From Stegostoma tigrinum (lineage: Eukaryota): 64,000 bases of DNA. Position 1 is the stretch's first letter. The number at the start of each line of letters is the position of its first letter. The notes under the pieces are model-generated. The model saw only the letters and a program-made list of their open reading frames with translations. It did no database searches and had not been told where the DNA came from. The stretch covers positions 14,807,861-14,871,860 of the forward strand of contig NC_081361.1 of the NCBI RefSeq assembly GCF_030684315.1, written 5' to 3'. This document shows, piece after piece, positions 3,021 through 61,797 of the stretch. Made by a program: the position numbers and the translations under genes.

Positions 3021-3235
3021 GTGAGTGATAATGGGAACTGCAGACGCTGGAGAATCCAAGACAACAAAATGTGAGGCTGGATGAACACAGCAGGCCCAGC
3101 AGCATCTCAGGAGCACAAAAGCTGACGTTTTCGGGCCTAGACCCTTCATCAGAGAGGGTCTAGGCCCGAAACGTCAGCTTTTGTGCCCCTGAGATGCTGC
3201 TGGGCCTGCTGTGTTCATTCAGCCTCACATTTCGT
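3021..3235. mobile_element. Short PLE-derived hairpin element with target-site duplication
   Basis: Inverted arms are centred at ~3150. A 16-bp direct repeat cagccatca(g/a)atattg flanks it at 3005-3020 and 3236-3251. Confidence 0.8.
3124..3152 (-). ncRNA. Minimal hammerhead ribozyme-like motif (one extra A in GAAA)
   Basis: Minus strand CTGATGA-A-GGGT(CTAG)GCCC-GAAAA-CG-TC. Confidence 0.4.
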
Positions 3236-3665: not shown

Positions 3666-4503
3666 CTGGGAAAGTGCTACTTTAGGCAGATGTGAAGATT
3701 ATGTTTAAGTTTAAAGAACACAATGGATATTCAAGAAAATACATCAAGGGGTTTATACTCACAGCGATGTGTAATATCTTCATCATATGGGGTGTCTCTA
3801 TTTTAAACATGGCAGAAGTCTTTTAGCAAGACTTTGACCCAATGTGAAGACAAAACATGGACCCTCTGGTCTGCCTTCGCTGACCCACAAACAAAATGTT
3901 TTAAAGCAACAGCGATCGGTGGGTCTAGAAAAGAGCTGCTATTGGTTATTGTTACATTTTGTGAAAGACAAAATTCTTGGTGGAGCACCATAATCCCTTT
4001 TCAAAATATCCTGTAAACAACCGGTGCAGGCCCATTCACATCTGTTGGATAGCACTGCTATTTAAGAGCTTATCCCTAAAATGACTGCAGGTTCTTATGC
4101 TGCTTAGCTCCACTTTACATTTGACATAGTCCAGCAGGTTAATTTGGTAATTTTCTTTGCAGGGTACTTCACGATCCTGTTTGGCGAAAGAGAGGTGCAC
4201 ACGTGAGTGGATGGAGGAGGGAATGAGCCAAGTTTTCTACCTCAAGGGCGACAAGGAAAATATTAGGAATGGTACTTTATGAATGGTTATGCCCGAGGTG
4301 CAGTGTATTAACACCCGGTAATGCTTAAATAAATTAATGTCTGTTTCAAATATGGAGTCACTTTCAAACTACAAACTTAGAGTTCAAAGGGACTTCAGAT
4401 ATTATTACAACAATATAAACTATAGATCTAATCCAGGCAAAATTAGATTGAGGTACAATGACAGAGACCCAATGGGCCATGCTTTCCCTCTTTGACCACT
4501 TAC

Positions 4504-4641
4504 CTGACTTCAACTGCGTCCTCCATCACTGTCATGTCTGTCTTGCATTTGGCTGATGGGTTAATGGCAAGTTCTGCTGGGGGAATGACGAAGCTTTTAC
4601 TCAGAGGTAGCCACATTCCTTCCCCAAGCGTGTAGGTGAAC
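4504..4641 (-). CDS. astn1: Astrotactin-1 internal coding exon (138 bp, phase 2/phase 2)
   Basis: Minus strand reads tttcctttctctcatAG|[48 protein letters not shown]|GTAAGT. The polypyrimidine/AG acceptor and GTAAGT donor are canonical. The peptide matches the vertebrate ASTN1 segment as I recall it; ASTN2 differs here (WLPVSKSFVVPPVELSINP). Confidence 0.93.
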
Positions 4642-5619
4642 CTATGAGAGAAAGGAAAACACTTGTGCTTAGGAAGTGCAATTGTGACTGAGAACAGCAG
4701 GTCGAGTAAACATGGATGTCACATTAGAGGCTGAGGGTTACACTAGGGAAACAGGCCCACTCAACAGCTAAACATTTCTCGGGTCGTGGAAACTATGGAC
4801 ACATAGTCTTATGTCTGCTGTCTTCTCATCATGTTATCAATCTGCACAATACTTACCACTTGCTATCAGAACCTGGTTCCTTCATTCATGTCATTGTTAC
4901 CAAATTGTTAAATTCAAGCCCTAAAGCCAAAGTTTGACCTAAAAAAATTTCCTAAGACATCGAGAAAGATTAATCATCACTTAATGGAATTACGCTTTTC
5001 TTTTGAAGTGCAGAATCTCTTGGCTGAATGAGTTCCTGCCATCCTTTTTGACATTGTACAGCAAACTCAGTAGATACCTCTCAACCTTCATTCCTTGGTC
5101 AATCTACTGAATCAGCCCTGCTGTCAATCTGCCCATTTCCTTCACTCCAGCTGCAATCTGTCAGCAGGGTCTTGCTCATAACATGTACCTCACTGTTGTC
5201 CATTATTAAGCCTTCTATCAATCTCCCTGGGCTACTTTGGGAGATGTTTATCAGACCTATGATTGTCACCTGAACACTGAATTAATGGCATTTAATAATT
5301 TTCAAATACCTTTCCTGGTATCCTGACGATGTCATGTTGTAACTTCCAGCAAATGTTGTTTGCATTAACAGAATAGCTCACTCATCCTGCTGTCAAATTC
5401 AATGATACCCATCCGAAGTCTTTTAGGATACTTCACCAACTCAAACACATTTCTAGCTAGTCCCTGTTAACCTCTGATAACGTTTTGAGTCAACTCATTG
5501 GGTTCTTTAATTTATCTGATGCCAAACTGTAGATAATGCGGCATGCCCGGTATCCATTTCTTTTCCCAAAGCACCTTCTCATCATACCTGGCCCCTATAC
5601 CCTCTCTCCTCAACATCTA

Positions 5620-5890
5620 AGGCCCCAACTTCTGCCAGGTGACACAACAATTTATGAGCATTTCTTTCAATCTAACCTGCTGTACTCATTGTGAGCAATG
5701 TGGTCACCTCTACATCTGGGAGACCAACCTCAGATTGGGCAATCACCTTGCAGGCCACCATTGTTGGCACTATAAGCTAGAACATCAGTTTCTGGTGGCA
5801 TGTCATTTTATTGCTCCACCTTGCTCTGTCCTTGCCGACTGAAGAACAATGCTTCATCCATCAATTAGGTACTTGATTGCTGCCCAGACT
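5620..5890 (+). pseudogene. Penelope-like (Neptune) GIY-YIG endonuclease remnant
   Basis: SFNLTCCTHCEQCGHLYIWETNLRLGNHLAGH resembles SxNxxYxIxCxxCGLxYIGETKRRLxDRFxEH; followed by VACHF and EEQ motifs. Confidence 0.7.
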
Positions 5891-7324
5891 CATCACTTAG
5901 CTCTGCAATTTCTGCTCCCGTTTTGTTGCCTAGTCTTCGTTTTTGTTTTGGTTTGCTCCCCTCCTTGCTTTCAGTCAGTAGTACACCTGCTAATGGTCTT
6001 TGATGCGAGGTTAGCACAGAAGGTTGACATCAGACAGACACTATCCTTGTGGCACATCTCTCATGACTTACTCAGAATACGTTTCTCCACTTTAATGCTG
6101 CATTTTGGGGTACTTGGGCCCCTTTCATTATAAAGCTGCTGCCCTAGATGTTTTGTGCAAAGGAACAAAAATCCACCTAATGGATTGAACCAAGGTTTTT
6201 CTTTGTGGTCTTAGCACGCACTTGGACTCTTGCAGCATCTCCACACTGGCTTGCCTTTTTGCACTATCCTGCCTCATCCAGAACATGGAGGTTCTCAAAA
6301 CCTTTGCCTTGCCTTGTTTCTGAATGATGACACAGAGCCAGGCAGCTTGTTCGGGTTATGAGCAGCAATCAGACAAAAGGATGCACATGTTGCTACATCA
6401 GTATCACACCTGCCCCAGGTATCAGCAGCAAATACAGTAAATACACTGCACTTGCTTCAACCAAATGGCCATTGCTCCAAGTGTAAGGGGAGTAAGCCTC
6501 AGTGAAGATAAGTGGTCCTGCACAAATCAGTTAAATACAACATCCAATCCCACTTCAAGGGCACGAGCCCATCAGTCGGCCACTTAACGGTGGTTGGAAT
6601 CAGGGACTCGGTATCACTGCAGTCAGAGAGTGGACCATAGTCAGTCCTGCAGGTCCAATGCATCCTGCAGTGAGGATTCAGGGTCAGTTGGTCAGGGAGT
6701 TGTTCTGAGATCGTTCAGGGGTTTGCTCACTCATTAGTTGGTCTACCTTTCCAAATCAGTCAGAAGTTAGCCGTGGTCAGTCTAGGGAATCTGCTCACAA
6801 TAGATAAAAAGGAGGTTAGCAGGGACCACCACTGTGGTAGGGTTGCTGAGTAAGTCAGTTGTGGTGATTGGAGGTAGCATGTTGGGTGAAGTGGAGACAT
6901 TTCACCATACAAGAGTGGGGAGACACAAAGGAGGGTATTAGAGGAAATGGGTTGTGCCATCAATGACCACAACCACCCTTGTTTCAGGAACAGTGCATCA
7001 TGATTGCTAATGACAGTCATTTGGGAACACATAAAAGCTCAGAACAGATGGGGGTCAACAGGGAGTGCAAGAAAGGAAGGAATGTGGAGTTTTGGTGGAG
7101 AGGAGTGGATGGTCTTTGATTACCTGGCTGAGCCAGTAACTTTGAGTGTGAAACGCAACCTGCATTACCTTCCAGTCCCATGCAAATTGTAACTGTGTAT
7201 TGGAAGTAAGGAATGGCTGTGACCACAGCCTCAGGGTGACATTTTTCCATGTCTGTGCACATGGGCTTGGTGTGTGGATCAAGTGTGAACCGGGGTAATC
7301 ACGTTAATTAGACACTTACACAGG

Positions 7325-7570
7325 AAAAGCAAAATACTGCAGATGATGGAAACCTGAAACAAACTTGGGCAATGCAGAAGAAACTTCTGCACCTGTGCAG
7401 AAAGTTAACATTTCAAATCTGGTCTGCCTCACCTGCCGAAGAGATGTATTTTATCAAGAAGATAATTCGGAAGTTGAGTCATACTGGACACAAAACGTTA
7501 CCTCTGTTTCTCTCTCCATAGATGCTGCCAGACCTGCTGAATTTCTCCAGCACTCCTTGAGTTTGTTACT
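7325..7570. mobile_element. Degenerate PLE-derived fold-back element
   Basis: aaaagcaaaatactgcagatg... and ...gatgctgccagacctgctgaatttctccagca family ends in inverted orientation. Confidence 0.6.
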
Positions 7571-7999
7571 TCCACAATACAGTGTGAACTAATCTATAAT
7601 CACCGAACCTAGCATGTGAAATGCATGCAGCACCCAACTGTGTGAGATATAAACCATGGACACAATAATCTTGACCATATCATTGATCATTGTGAATTAA
7701 TCATGGTCATCACTGTGAAGCAGAAGTAATTGCAGGCAATTTTAAAAGGTTATCTGTGGGCCACTATTCATAAAAGCAACCCAACATCTCATAGTCTGCA
7801 CAGAGGCAAGGAGCTGATGTGTTCTTATCCTGAACTGGAAATATTCACTAACATGTCTTGTATACAATTCTGCCTTTCTTGGGTGATAAGGGGTTGGGGG
7901 TTGATGGCGGCAGGGGAGAGATATAAATACTCGTACAACACTTAGAATTATCTACTCTATCTGTGCAGCATGGCTGGTGCTGCTTTTATTGGAGTAAGC

Positions 8000-8308
8000 A
8001 TAGAATGGTACAGAATCCCTACAGTGCAGAAACAGGCCCTTCGGCCCAACAAATCCATACAAACCCTCGGAGCATCCTACCCAGACCCATTCCCCTATAA
8101 CCCACCGAATCCACACATCCCTGAACACCACAGGCAATTTAGCATGGCCAATCCACCTAACTGGCACATCTTTGGACTGAAGGAGGAAACCCACTCATGG
8201 GAAGAACATGCAAACTTCACACAGACAGTCGCCTGAGGGTGGAACTGAACCTGGGTCTCTGGCACTGTGAGACAGCAATGCTAACCACTGAGCCACTGAG
8301 TCACCCCA
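8000..8308 (-). mobile_element. HE1/V-SINE (tRNA-derived SINE)
   Basis: Minus strand has a tRNA-like head (gtggctcagtggttagca...gggttcagttcc), the V-domain tgtgtgaagtttgcatgttct, and a CR1-like tail. Confidence 0.8.
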
Positions 8309-9299
8309 AGGGTGTCAAGGTAAAATGTACACCTACAGCCCTTCTTATCTGAGGCCCCCATGTCCAACAGTATTGACAACTATGCTACACCATCATTTCT
8401 GCAAATGCAAACTGCTTACATTAAACAGAACCTCTCCACTTTGCAATGCTCCCCACACAGGTTCATTGCAACTGTGACCAATGGATCCACGAACAGCCGG
8501 GCTCATTGTCATTGTGGTTGCAGAGAAATGGAGGAGGAACAGATGCACCAGCCAGCCCAAGGCCCTTGCAGCAACTTCTGTTTCATGTCAATTTGACTCC
8601 ATCTGAAGAGGTGACAGCTGAAGGTCCCCTCAGGTGCAGGAGCTACAGCAGACTCAGATTTTGTTGCCCTCGATGCCAGACAAGCGAGGAACAGTATCAC
8701 TGTGGACTCAGGATGCCCTGGGACACTGTCACAAACTGGAACAACTGCTGGTGTGGGACCTGCAAACTGAAGGGGTGCATGGCCCTCCCATCCTAGTGGT
8801 CTCCAAGGTGACAACTATGCTAAAACTTTATGCACTTGGTCTAACTATTCCCGAGTAGCTACTTGCTCAATTTTATTGGAATTCTCCACATTAAATGAAG
8901 ACATGCAGCGGGTTCCAAGTGTAGTGGAGTTGCCTGGTGGAAAATTCAATTTTCTGAGCAATTTCTACACAGACTCCTACAATGGGGGTTTTGTAGCATC
9001 TCCATGGAGAAATCCCACCTTCATGAGAATGAAAGCCATCAGGCCAATGGAAAATCTGGGTCATTGTTTATCATATCTTCCAAATTTAATTGTATATGTT
9101 TTGCTTTCTCAAGATACGTTTATCTCTAAGTGATAGCAGTTCTGCAGCAGTTCATGCTGTCTTGGAGACTTTTCCTTCATTTGCAGCTGAAATGGAGGGT
9201 TCACCCTTTCACGGGTAAAATGCCTTTATCCCAGCTTTTATGAACAATCAACTGCCTTTTCATTAGCTTGAATGACGACTCCCTTAATTTCTTCAGGAC

Positions 9300-9520
9300 A
9301 GTAAGAACCACAGATGCTGGAGTCAGACATAACACTGTGTGGAGCTGGAAGAGCACTGCAGGCCAGGCTGCATCAGAGGAGCAGGAAAGCTGACATTTTG
9401 GGTTGGGACCCTTCTTCAGAAAATTTCTAAAGAAGGGTCCCAAACGGAAATGCCAACCTTCCCTCTCCTCTGATGCTGCCTGGCCTGCTGTGTTCCTCCA
9501 GCTCCACACTGTGTTATCTC
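9300..9520. mobile_element. PLE-derived hairpin element
   Basis: Inverted arms ~9330-9420 and ~9425-9517, with decayed hammerhead-like cores at the centre (ctgaagaagggtcccaacccaaaatgtc on minus). Confidence 0.75.
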
Positions 9521-10194
9521 CTACTTTCTTTCTTTGTTAGTACAGGTCTGCTTATGCTTTGAAAGTTAACAGTTTATTTACTGGCACCTTGATGCCTCTG
9601 TGTCTGCGGCCTCAGATTGATAATTCTTTTGTGGCACTTTACTTCTATTTCGGGAACCTTGTGATGCCCGCTTGCATGGGACGCAATGCTTGAGCTGACT
9701 TTTATGGATTTTTTTTAACTCCTCCCTTTTCCAGCCTGCATTTCTGAGCCATTTTATCATTTCCACCAGGAGCTTTAAGCTTTGCTCATGGATCCTTCTC
9801 CACTCAATTTTGAATTTCCACTAGAACTCTTGATCCTTCCCAGCAGCCTGGATCTCCTTGTGGAGATAGTAACTCTCCTTCTCCAGACAGCTGCTAACTC
9901 TCCCATCATAGCGGGTTGGAAATGCTGTTACCATTCACTGAAGTGCTCTTGCTCAGTGAGGATTGTTAGAAGGGACCTCTTACGTAGGGATCTTAAGTCT
10001 TCAGCTCTTTCATGCCTTGCTGTAGAAGGTGGTGACTTTAAACTGAGTCTGCAAATCTCACGTTGCTGCTCACTATGAACTCTGTGGGCAACTAAAATCA
10101 AAACCACACTTGTTTATTGCCAGGTTGTATGAGCATCACAGTTCACCATGTGATATGAGCTGCTGCAGGTGATAAAGATTGTCACTACCATTGT

Positions 10195-15845: not shown

Positions 15846-16473
15846 ATCACTTATCTGATGTGCTGCATTGTAAATCAGTGCTGACTAAAAGTGTGACCAT
15901 TAAGTCTTATCCAAGTATTAAAGATCCCAATGACCACACCATAATGCCATGAACTTAAGTCATAGAAAACAAGAAATCAAAAAAATTTGCTCCAGCAAAA
16001 TTAATGTCACTGCAGATAAGGCAGGGACATACCTTTGGCAGCACTTTCCACAATTATTTGTAATTGCAATGACTTGTACGATTCATCAAATGTTAATATA
16101 GGGTCCTAGAATTTACAATATAGATGGAGGCTATACAACCCATCCTGAAGACGTACCAGTTTCCAGAATAGCTACCCAGCTAGTCCCATGCTTCAGTTCT
16201 ATCTCCGTTGCCTTTGATATTCAAATGACTAATCTCACTGCCCTTCTGCTGCTGCTGGCTAAGCAAGAAGTAACTTTGTGAGGGATCTTAACCAGGGATG
16301 TGGGAGGGTGAGAGTTGATGCTCTTACTCATTTCAGTGACTATCCAGTGTGAGGATGGACCATCTGCACTGCATGACGCTTGAGTGCTGGATCACAATTT
16401 GTGCACTAACTTAACCTGCCTGACATTTTCACTTTGCAGTCTGTTTCAAAGCAGGTAGTGGTGACTGAGAAGT

Positions 16474-16700
16474 GTGGACTCGGACTCACGGGCCTCAGCG
16501 TGGACTCGGACTCCCGGTCCTCAGCGTGGACTCGGACTCCCGGGCCTCAGCGTGGACTCGGACTCCCGGGCCTCAGCGTGGACTCAGACTCCCGGGCCTC
16601 AGCATTGTCTCGGACTCCCTGGCCTCAGCGTTGTCTCAGACTCCCGGGCCTCAGCGTTGCCTCGGACTCCCAGGCCTCAGCGTGGTCTCAGACTCTCAGC
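16474..16700. repeat. 26-bp GC/CpG-rich minisatellite (8 full copies plus one partial)
   Basis: Unit gtggactcggactcccgggcctcagc, diverging toward the right end. Confidence 0.95.
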
Positions 16701-16799
16701 ACTATCAACCTCTGAGGTGAAGTCCGGTACAGCGTGGGTTGAAAGGACTGTCATTCCAAACTCTTATTTCTCAATTTTTCTAATTTATTGCGAGACATT

Positions 16800-19849: not shown

Positions 19850-19960
19850 TGGTGGGAACTGCAGATGCTGGAGAATCCAAGATAACAAAGTGTGGGGCTG
19901 GATGAACACAGCAGGCCAAGCAGCATCTTAGGAGCACAAAAGCTGATGTTTCAGGCCTCT
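19850..19960. mobile_element. Single-arm copy of the PLE-derived short element
   Basis: gggaactgcagatgctggagaatccaagataacaaagtgtg...gcacaaaagctgatgtttcaggcct, same family as 3021. Confidence 0.8.
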
Positions 19961-21077
19961 GGCAGCGTACGTCTAATAAGTTCTGGCCTGGCTTGTTGCA
20001 CTTGGCACTGCTGAGATCTATCACACAGAAGATAAGGGGCACCCTGCTCAATGTCCTCATCTTTCACATCAGAAGACTGTTGCTGCCTTTCAAACTCTTT
20101 GGAGTCAGTCATGTGTCATGACTCACTGGGTCGTGCACTGGAAATCAAGCCTGCCTTTCCCGGGCTTGTCACAAAATTTAAAAATTTTAATGTGAGTGCT
20201 CAAAACTGCTCCATTTTCACTCTCAAGTTACTTTTCAAGAGACATTATTTGTTGCAAGTAATTAGACTCACATAAAGGGAGAATTATAAACCCTATAATT
20301 CAGCATATAAATAGTACAAATTAAAACTCCATTCCCCCTTACAAACTCACTCACGTATAAATACAAACATATGCAAACACAGGGAAAATATGGGCAGAGG
20401 AAAACTGGGAGGCAGTTTAGTGATTCCTAATCACTGGTTGCGAGTTGGTCCTCATGATTCTTACACTGGTCAGAATGTTGCTTCTCAGTCAATTTTCTCT
20501 GAATGCTTCAACTGGTTTGCAAAGAACCACAGTGTACCCCCTGAGTTGCAACGGCAGTGTATGCAGCCAGAAGAGAAGCTATAACAAGCAGACAGAGTCA
20601 TCTCTCCCAAAAAGAACTTGATTTGGCATGCACAGCACTGTCAAAGGAACTGGGATCTTCAGGTCTTTGAAGAGAGCTTGTATTTTGAAAAGGTGACATG
20701 CGTGAAGAAATGAAACAAAGTCAGGCCCAGAGATGAACAACTCTCATTTGTAACAAACAAGATGGGTTAAGGTTAGGCCTCAACAATCTCTCAGGTCATG
20801 CTGCTATGCCATTATATTGTGATATTAACCACTGTCCGACTGATAAACTTATTAGTCTGCTGAAAGAAATGCAAAATTGAAATAACAAGGATGCCTGCTG
20901 AGAAAATACAGTTAAAAACTGAAAGAACCGTGGATGCTGTAAATCAGGAACAAAAACAAAGTTGCTAGAAAAGCTCAGAGATAATGGGAACTGCAGATGC
21001 TGGAGAATTCCAAGATAATAAAATGTGAGGCTGGATGAACACAGCAGGCCAAGCAGCATCTCAGGAGCACAAAAGCT

Positions 21078-21105
21078 GACGTTTCGGGCCTAGACCCTTC
21101 ATCAG
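21078..21105 (-). ncRNA. Minimal hammerhead ribozyme-like motif
   Basis: CTGATGA-A-GGGT(CTAG)GCCC-GAAA-CG-TC. Catalytic core intact, ACGT palindrome in place of helix III, helix I weak. Confidence 0.55.
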
Positions 21106-21149
21106 AAAAGCTCAGCAGGTCTGGCAGCATCTGTGAAGGAAAAAAACAG

Positions 21150-21187
21150 AGTTAACATTTCGGGTCAGGTGACCCTTCCTCAGAACT
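21150..21187 (-). ncRNA. Minimal hammerhead ribozyme-like motif
   Basis: AGTT-CTGAGGA-A-GGGTCA(CC)TGACCC-GAAA-TG-TT-AACT: 4-bp helix I, 5-6-bp helix II, core intact. Confidence 0.55.
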
Positions 21188-21384
21188 GCTGAGATCTATC
21201 ACACAGACGATGAGGGACACCCTGCTCGATTTCCTTTATGAGGAAAGCATGGAAGAATCAAGTTTGGAAGCAACAAGAACATGGAAAAGACTTACAACAA
21301 GTAACTGTTGAAAGCAGGAGAAAAAGCAACATTACAGAATTGTGCAGAAAGTACAGTTGCTGTGCACATTGGAAGACATTTTCA

Positions 21385-22400
21385 GTGACAACTTGCATTT
21401 ATATACATCTTTAACCTTATGAAGTACAACAAGATATCTTACAGGACTGTAGTCAGATGTTATTTATCACCAAAACAATAAAAGAACACAATTAAAACGT
21501 GGTGAAAGTTGTTTCTTTGTGAGCGTTTTAACGGTATGGGAGAAATAGAGAAGTGTAGTGGTTTCAGGAGTGAAGTCCTGAGTTTAGGGTCTTGACAGAG
21601 AGAGAGACACACAGACAGCGGGAGCACCAAAAATAAAGGAACCGCAAGAGGTCTAATTTGGACGAATAATGAACTCTTGAAGGATTGGAGATTTGAAGGA
21701 GTAGTGAGGTCTTAATTAATGAAGGGATTTGAACTTGAGAGTAAACATGATCTGGGCAAGATGTTGATAAATGAGGAGTTAATGCAGCCCATCAAAGAAA
21801 AGAGTGATAGATAAATGTAATTTTATGTGAATCAGGATTCGGACAGCAGGCCTTTGGTTCAGATTTATGAGGAAAGCATGGAAGAATCAAGTTTGGAAGC
21901 AAAAAATATATGGATAAGATTTACAGCAAGTAACTAGAAGTAGGGGGAAAAAGAGCAACGTATCAGAGGTGTATGCAAATGGCCTTTGTGATGCCGAGGA
22001 TATAAGATTAAAAGCTCAGTTTAGCGGCAAATAGAACGCAGGCTGCAAACCATCAGTTGTGCTTGAAAGAGCGGTCAAGAGAAGGGAATGGAAATGCTAA
22101 CAAGGGGACAGTCTGTATGGTAGAGCTGGAGACTGTGGCTGTGGGGTCCCCAATATTCAGCAATGAAATTATATCTCATCCAAAGATGGATGTCTGAAAA
22201 GCCGCCTTACAACACATGGGCAGAGGAGGGATTGCGTGATGGTGATTTACAGGCAGAACTGATCGGTACATATGGGTATTACAGACAGGTCTTTGTATGA
22301 TACTGCCAAAGGAGCAGCACATAAATGAGAAGAGAAAGGGACTGATAATAGGGAAAGATCTTCAACAGTACCCAGCCACAATTCACCAAATACAGTATAT
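21385..22400 (-). mobile_element. Ancient L2 LINE remnant
   Basis: L2-type 3' end (caacttgcatttatata) at ~21388 and patchy RT-like similarity at ~22170-22340. Confidence 0.45.
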
Positions 22401-61479: not shown

Positions 61480-61494
61480 TCACACGCAGAGAAT

Positions 61495-61797
61495 AAAATG
61501 TGAGGCTGGATGAACACAGCAGGCCCAGCAGCATCTCAGGAGCACAAAAGCTGACGTTTCGGGCCTAGACCCTTCATCAGAGAAGGGGATGGGGTGAGGG
61601 TTCTGGAATAAATAGGGAGAGAGGGGGAGGCGGACCGAAGATGGAGAGAAAAGAAGATAGGTGGAGAGGAGAGTATAAGTGGGGAGGTAGGGAGGGGATA
61701 GGTCAGTCCTGGGAAGACGGACAGGTCAAGGAGGTGGGATGCAGCCTCACATTTTATTATCTTGGATTCTCCAGCATCTGCAGTTCCAATTATCACA
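61495..61797. mobile_element. PLE-derived element with short inverted end and TSD
   Basis: A 15-bp duplication tcacac(g/t)cagagaat at 61480-61494 and 61798-61812; purine-rich body. Confidence 0.85.
61553..61580 (-). ncRNA. Minimal hammerhead ribozyme-like motif
   Basis: CTGATGA-A-GGGT(CTAG)GCCC-GAAA-CG-TC, identical to 21078-21105; only a 2-bp local helix I. Confidence 0.5.

Follow-up and report, generated by a model that had tools for sequence, protein, structure and literature searches.

Two hammerhead motifs lie in tandem within an astrotactin intron

The 64-kb stretch of DNA analyzed here, called the window throughout, lies in an astrotactin gene that occupies the minus strand of contig C10 from at least 15,471,582 to 13,973,110 and has a paralog on C37 (Pfam PF19441, PF19743). 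The next downstream coding exon of this ASTN1-type gene, at ~4641-4504 (minus strand) of the window, matches PF19441 with E 7.6e-29 and is found 16.4 kb past the predicted cut site described below; the upstream exon is ~53 kb before that site, beyond the window. Because the flanking exons cover profile positions 412-452 and 446-494 with no gap, both motifs lie within one intron of ~70 kb. The PF19441 exons run along C10 minus, making minus the sense strand for both motifs and confirming the sense orientation in astn1 given by an initial annotation of this DNA. ASTN2 was considered as the host gene and ruled out, since the same exon compared with a solved ASTN2 chain scored 63.4 bits for the C37 paralog and 34.1 bits for the C10 gene. 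By elimination, with the paralog the better fit to ASTN2, the C10 gene is of the ASTN1 type. Both genes are long, extending over 13.97-15.47 Mb on C10 and 14.08-15.29 Mb on C37, which is more than 1.2 Mb each and at least 1.5 Mb for the ASTN1-type gene.

Two intact minimal hammerhead cores stand in tandem on the astn1-sense strand, as the initial annotation had read them. Unit 1, a minimal type I motif of an older host family (family A), occupies 21187-21150 (minus strand) and reads AGTT-CTGAGGA-A-GGGTC-ACCT-GACCC-GAAA-TG-TT-AACT, with a 4-bp helix I (AGUU/AACU), a 5-bp helix II, a decayed palindrome AUGU and U at position 17 (21154). Its helix II had been described as 6 bp with a 2-nt loop, which cannot close; the stem is instead 5 bp with a 4-nt loop. 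Unit 2, from a young family (family B), occupies 21105-21074 (minus strand) and reads CTGATGA-A-GGGT-CTAG-GCCC-GAAA-CG-TC-AGCT, with a 4-bp helix II, the palindrome ACGU, a helix I of its own of just 2 bp, as throughout family B, and a GUC site whose C sits at 21078, where cleavage had been predicted. The gap between the units is 44 nt and the core-to-core spacing 78 nt. Each unit carries the minimal hammerhead core (CUGANGA...GAAA-NN-UH, with helix II closed by G10.1-C11.1), and in each the palindromic 15.1-16.1 stands in place of helix III, ACGU in unit 2 and AUGU in unit 1, the latter self-pairing through G-U wobbles alone. A search of the 64-kb window against Rfam gave zero matches at the gathering score, and the eight matches at E<=10 in 20900-21300 included no hammerhead family. 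Rfam hammerhead models would be expected to require helix III, so the absence of a match is not evidence against a minimal hammerhead.

Unit 2 lies at the start of a nested insert, a 127-nt, 5'-truncated pLTR stub of family B (20979-21105, minus strand) that runs from the hammerhead core as far as the longer of the family's two frequent tail ends. The 12-bp TSD proposed earlier for this insertion is exact, its left copy (21104-21115, minus strand) and right copy (20967-20978, minus strand) being identical at 12/12 positions. The last two letters of the TSD are also the first two of the unit 2 core, and such microhomology is present at both junctions of the insert. The interrupted host is a family-A pLTR stub whose 5' piece (21116-21187, minus strand) is 84-97% identical to 30 sampled copies and whose 3' piece (20912-20966, minus strand) continues past the insert. 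Its own likely target duplication is 9 nt long, with a left copy at 21186-21194 and a probable right copy at 20895-20903 (both minus strand), the latter separated by 9 nt from the recognisable family tail.

The units belong to two high-copy, Penelope-like families

We counted copies by pattern search of the genome, with the pattern read backwards as the control. The unit 2 31-mer has 89,060 exact copies in the 3.2-Gb genome, and for host family A a strict core pattern matched 2,618 times and a 13-nt tail anchor 69,850 times; the reversed control gave 0 in each family. Each motif exceeds chance as a sequence only because both are high-copy repeats. Like the minimal hammerheads of metazoan PLE pLTRs in the excerpted text of PMC4209133 (Cervera and De la Pena 2014), both units have a CUGANGA core, an extra base after position 9, G10.1-C11.1, no helix III, a palindromic 15.1-16.1, a short helix I and a pLTR location, and their families occur mostly as single truncated copies. 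They differ from that excerpt in a copy number far above the 4,000-9,000 quoted there, in the tandem of two families made by nesting and in a 4-bp helix I at just one of the two sites, where the class calls for 4-5 bp.

Among 30 sampled family-B copies, 10 start within ~8 nt of the core, often preceded by an inverted copy, and the remainder extend upstream into a pyrimidine-rich repeat, the longest reaching an RT/GIY-YIG frame. Their 3' ends fall 90-99 nt after the core in 17/30 copies and 126-127 nt after it in 10/30. For family A, clear upstream continuation was seen in just 3 of the 30 copies sampled. In both families, long copies link an RT plus GIY-YIG frame to the pLTR (L010 and L029 in family B; L059, broken, in family A). 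The L010 frame of 422 aa contains YIDD, a CX4CXXC finger and a GIY-YIG domain that scores 22.3 bits against Pfam PF01541 (E 1.6e-4), slightly below the 22.6 cut-off; the L059 frame had no match in Pfam, and its RT, finger and GIY-YIG motifs were recognised by eye. We also observed 5' truncation, inverted 5' copies and a 30-40-bp tail, which are EN+ PLE traits according to the excerpted part of PMC8557442, and the translations show a CX2-5CxxC finger between RT and endonuclease, a mark of Neptune/Nematis in that same part. The upstream frames in long copies of both families bear out the Penelope-like origin that had been proposed. We assign families A and B to Penelope-like elements, and by the CxxC-type linker they would be of the Neptune/Nematis type. 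The 3' arms of the two families are one letter apart, and this shared ancestry is the reason the units fit each other across families.

Similar to green anole Poseidon, as presented in the available portion of PMC11167929, the families have a pLTR hammerhead and two tail ends 30-40 nt apart, and their insertions would likewise stem from uncut RNA. Unlike Poseidon in that portion, they have the Neptune/Nematis CxxC-type linker.

The stubs of both families begin 4-5 nt before the hammerhead core (L001-L060). Long copies have a TATA-like word 28-30 nt ahead of this start: TATAAA, accompanied by an initiator-like TCAGTT, in family A and TATTTAT in family B. This suggests that the stubs may derive from RNA whose transcription started at the pLTR promoter, the first transcribed bases forming the 5' arm of helix I. 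Additionally, family-B 5' junctions often create AGCT right before the core (L016, L025, L028, L030), which would give a 4-7-bp helix I versus 2 bp in the native family-B repeat. A third minimal-hammerhead family was also encountered (L012:2117-2162, L020:249-294, L087:4121-4166, L102:1268-1313); its 6-bp helix II is unlike those of families A and B, its helix I has 3 bp, and relative to both families its changes are compensatory.

Genomic copies decay within families and compensate between them

Of 280 helix II cells in family B, 228 were kept, 28 were changed on one side, 1 on both sides and 23 were broken; for the 215 cells of family A these numbers were 169, 15, 4 and 27. Changes within families cluster at CpG, and the AUGU of unit 1 is a decayed ACGU, a position at which the family-A sample has CG in 19/30 copies and TG in 11/30. 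Across the three families the arms of helix I change together (U-A/C-G in B; U-A/U-A/G-C/A-U in A; A-U/C-G/U-A in the third). Covariation was read from core-anchored lists, as a MAFFT alignment of 23 motifs misplaced 4 third-family rows; the between-family list was preselected for paired helix II and is circular for helix II, not for helix I. A lack of helix II covariation across genomic copies had been set in advance as grounds for rejecting the ribozyme, and within families such covariation fails, with the three families mutually compensated. Compensation between families together with decay within them indicates that constraint acted on the motif while it was part of the parent elements and that in the stubs it is now decaying.

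The insert is identical at 127/127 positions to two of the 30 sampled family-B copies (L011, L022) and 91.6-100% identical to all 30. In a related species, contigs cover both flanks, with 24 differences in 426 nt (5.6%) and 25 in 344 nt (7.3%), and enter both ends of the host stub; no contig bridges the insert. From this we infer that the host stub predates the split from the related species, and the insert looks to postdate it, an indirect point.

The cross-unit pairings would give a single chimeric hammerhead

The initial annotation had proposed a dimeric ribozyme held together by cross-unit helices. The pairs it named are present, A-U, U-G, G-C and U-A in helix III and U-A, U-G, G-C and A-U in helix I, the latter a 4-bp helix with one wobble, against 4 bp within unit 1. 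The dimer itself does not follow, since the mirror site has a 2-bp helix I and the unit 2 core is absorbed in an extension of helix III. In the constrained fold, the linker and the unit 2 core pair as this long extension, and the sole complete site predicted combines the core and helix II of unit 1 with the GUC of unit 2. These pairings would assemble a single chimeric hammerhead with an extended helix III rather than a dimer with two sites. A symmetric dimer, in which two cores share helix III and each has its own helix I, is ruled out by the 2-bp second helix I.

According to excerpts of PMC6155905 and 10.64898/2026.07.22.740005, the dimeric type I hammerheads of the avocado viroid and newt satellite, and those of non-LTR retrozymes, likewise place two cores in one RNA with a common helix III. 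There, however, one unit is repeated head-to-tail with two equal sites, whereas the present pair joins two families through a single nested insertion with a TSD and is no tandem repeat of one hammerhead unit, as a non-LTR retrozyme would be.

The cost of the active fold depends strongly on the flanking sequence. For the trimmed RNA 21187-21074 it lies 4.8 kcal/mol above the ensemble; adding 3, 8 or 13 upstream bases gives 6.7, 12.3 and 13.0 kcal/mol, downstream bases alone give 9.5-11.3 kcal/mol, and longer native contexts give 9.9-16.0 kcal/mol, in a model that takes no account of Mg2+, tertiary contacts or proteins and was run without a minimal hammerhead of proven activity as positive control. 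The high cost in native contexts arises because an 8-bp helix between the 9-mer that is the likely target duplication of the host (21186-21194) and the host tail (21119-21112) buries helix I and the start of the unit 1 core; its probability is 0.93-0.99 in transcripts stopping short of a complete unit 2. Helix II has a pair probability of 0.97-1.0 in unit 1 and 0.0-0.93, depending on context, in unit 2. In 21060-21187 the minimum-energy fold already contains helix II and the cross-unit helix III. When nine intact same-strand pairs were scored with 12-nt flanks, the studied pair had the lowest cost (10.3 versus 12.5-23.6). The earlier expectation of activity in the pre-mRNA is not supported by these predictions, as the construct suggested for it, 21040-21220, would place the active fold 16.0 kcal/mol above the ensemble.

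Lunse et al. (RNA Biol) reportedly described dimer cleavage of PLE hammerheads. In the excerpt of PMC4209133, the minimal hammerhead monomer is uncleaved, and dimers and a helix-III-extended form cleave weakly, mostly at non-physiological Mg2+; the available text of 10.64898/2026.07.22.740005 describes cleavage of 1/9 frog dimers and places 42-44% of retrozyme copies in introns. The accessible part of PMC11167929 describes a PLE hammerhead that cleaves only with the protein of its element, cleavage being unnecessary for insertion, and no RNA reads ending at the cleavage site.

Could the two-family hammerhead nonetheless work by accident, aided by a protein or chaperone and unselected, and cut a measurable share of astn1 pre-mRNA? 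The one site has all core residues and helices, its trimmed penalty is only 4.8 kcal/mol and the lowest among the nine pairs was its own. Additionally, a PLE protein enabled cleavage in vitro (PMC11167929), and the youth of family B means that its protein may be available. Against this, the competing helix is predicted to form first, helix I and helix III each have a U-G wobble beside the core, helix I has 4 bp and there is no loop-loop contact. Published activity is weak in the excerpt of PMC4209133, and at the mammalian rate found in the excerpt of PMC10274809 the polymerase would be at the next exon in ~4-5 min. For comparison, the same excerpt gives the CPEB3 ribozyme a half-life of 2-3 min and cites earlier work in which slow intronic ribozymes were without effect on splicing. 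We consider measurable cutting improbable. That such a one-site hammerhead, with its core from one family, its cut site from the other and the linker as helix III, would act in vivo as an intronic ribozyme at its birth stage we hold to be somewhat more doubtful still.

Nested pairs recur about as often as chance predicts

To place the tandem among similar arrangements, we searched with three gap patterns and one pattern for the exact junction; they cover just part of the possible spacings and yielded 18 distinct loci, of which 15 have a host of type A and the other 3 do not. The 3' ends and target duplications differ among the nested loci, indicating independent insertions. Within a 14-position gap window, 7 nests were seen and about 5 expected, the expectation (69,850 x 14 x 89,060 x 10/30 / 6.4e9 = 4.5) being a lower bound. 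In a homology-based sample of 671.5 kb, whole motifs were intact in 4/43 cases for family A and 33/70 for family B, where the A count includes the studied locus and one cross-family match, and in a few cases both arms of an inverted pair are counted as separate rows. Accordingly few doubly intact nests are to be found: ~0.7 are expected among the 15, and we saw 1 when G10.1-C11.1 was required (the studied locus) and 3 when helix II could have G-U at its base (adding L113 and L139). A B-after-B pattern returned 19 loci, 5 of which hold intact same-strand pairs, 6 in all. The tandem is rare and the best of its class, and its arrangement is what chance yields; a special status of the pair is not supported, and the copy-number expectation accounts for the nests.

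These counts bear on whether nesting is directed, with family B targeting the tail of family A, or whether an A-B composite moves as a unit and creates dimer-competent tandems. Six of eight nests at the same anchor share nearly one junction, three nests have an exact 22-nt junction in common, and a review (PMC6765202, in the passage available) describes a tendency of PLEs to insert into or beside existing copies. The common junction, however, is explained by microhomology between a pyrimidine run and the family-B start, and the number of nests fits chance. A propagated composite is ruled out by the differing 3' ends, which, like the duplications, show that the loci are not copies of one composite. 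We regard directed nesting or a mobile composite as very unlikely.

Two further arrangements were observed in these searches. At L125/L126 (G000:C24:36,383,5xx-36,383,8xx) there is a head-to-tail array of ~five 66-nt family-B units, retrozyme-like and without helix I. At L120, L122, L127, L130, L131 and L133, an inverted copy is followed by a B copy ending 57-70 nt past its core and then by a second B starting from the core, a recurring layout that looks like a 5'-end template jump within one insertion.

Origin and consequences of the tandem

We conclude that the tandem is, with good probability, the product of a chance and unselected insertion of a family-B stub into an older related stub in an astn1 intron, and that the joined hammerheads are predicted to be inactive in the pre-mRNA. 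That the insert begins at the hammerhead core is explained by the third of family-B copies whose 5' end lies no more than a few bases from it. The insert would have been made by target-primed reverse transcription of uncut pLTR RNA, starting at the tail. In each family the motif probably worked for the parent element, either as a homodimer or as a ribozyme assisted by protein, and would now be decaying. During transcription of astn1, the 8-bp helix is predicted to form before unit 2 exists and to bury helix I first, making cleavage too slow to affect splicing.

By comparison, the domesticated intronic ribozymes described in excerpts of PMC6155905 (RECK and amniote hammerheads) and PMC10274809 (the HDV-like CPEB3 ribozyme) also lie on the sense strand of an intron or in a neural gene, but in those excerpts they are monomeric and conserved across species, whereas the present pair is lineage-young, minimal and predicted to misfold. 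That selection keeps the pair to tune astn1 splicing in the manner of CPEB3 or RECK is extremely unlikely, for although it is in sense orientation in an intron of a neural gene and has both cores intact where only 4/43 family-A copies are, the insert looks very young, unit 1 already has the common CpG decay, the nearest exon is 16 kb away and similar cores occur on both strands throughout the gene. In 464 kb of astn1 there are 19 intact cores, 11 sense and 8 antisense, a count with little statistical power that gives no sign of purging.

For now, the tandem counts as an unremarkable by-product of two very large retroelement families, with known parts in a chance arrangement. If the one-site hammerhead were active, minimal hammerheads of different families could complement each other and, with ~100,000 such cores in the genome, cross-family cleavage would be a general force on transcripts; if it cleaved in vivo, it would illustrate how conserved intronic ribozymes can arise from transposon debris. 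The trimmed RNA 21187-21074 is a natural test piece for two-family complementation, and 8 added upstream bases are predicted to abolish its activity. A full-text literature search, with most subscription journals outside it, turned up no article describing PLE hammerheads in sharks or hammerheads assembled across families through nesting.

Other repeats in the window

The unit 2 core occurs twice more in the 64-kb window, at 3129-3152, where there is an additional A after GAAA, and at 61557-61580. More family-B and older related stubs are found at 3027-3235, 9297-9525, 19853-19958 and 61488-61794, several as inverted pairs. Immediately upstream of the host stub is a 109-nt direct repeat (21235-21343 and 21864-21972), its copies 629 nt apart with 80% identity. 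Lastly, a 26-nt tandem repeat of ~11 units occupies 16445-16730.
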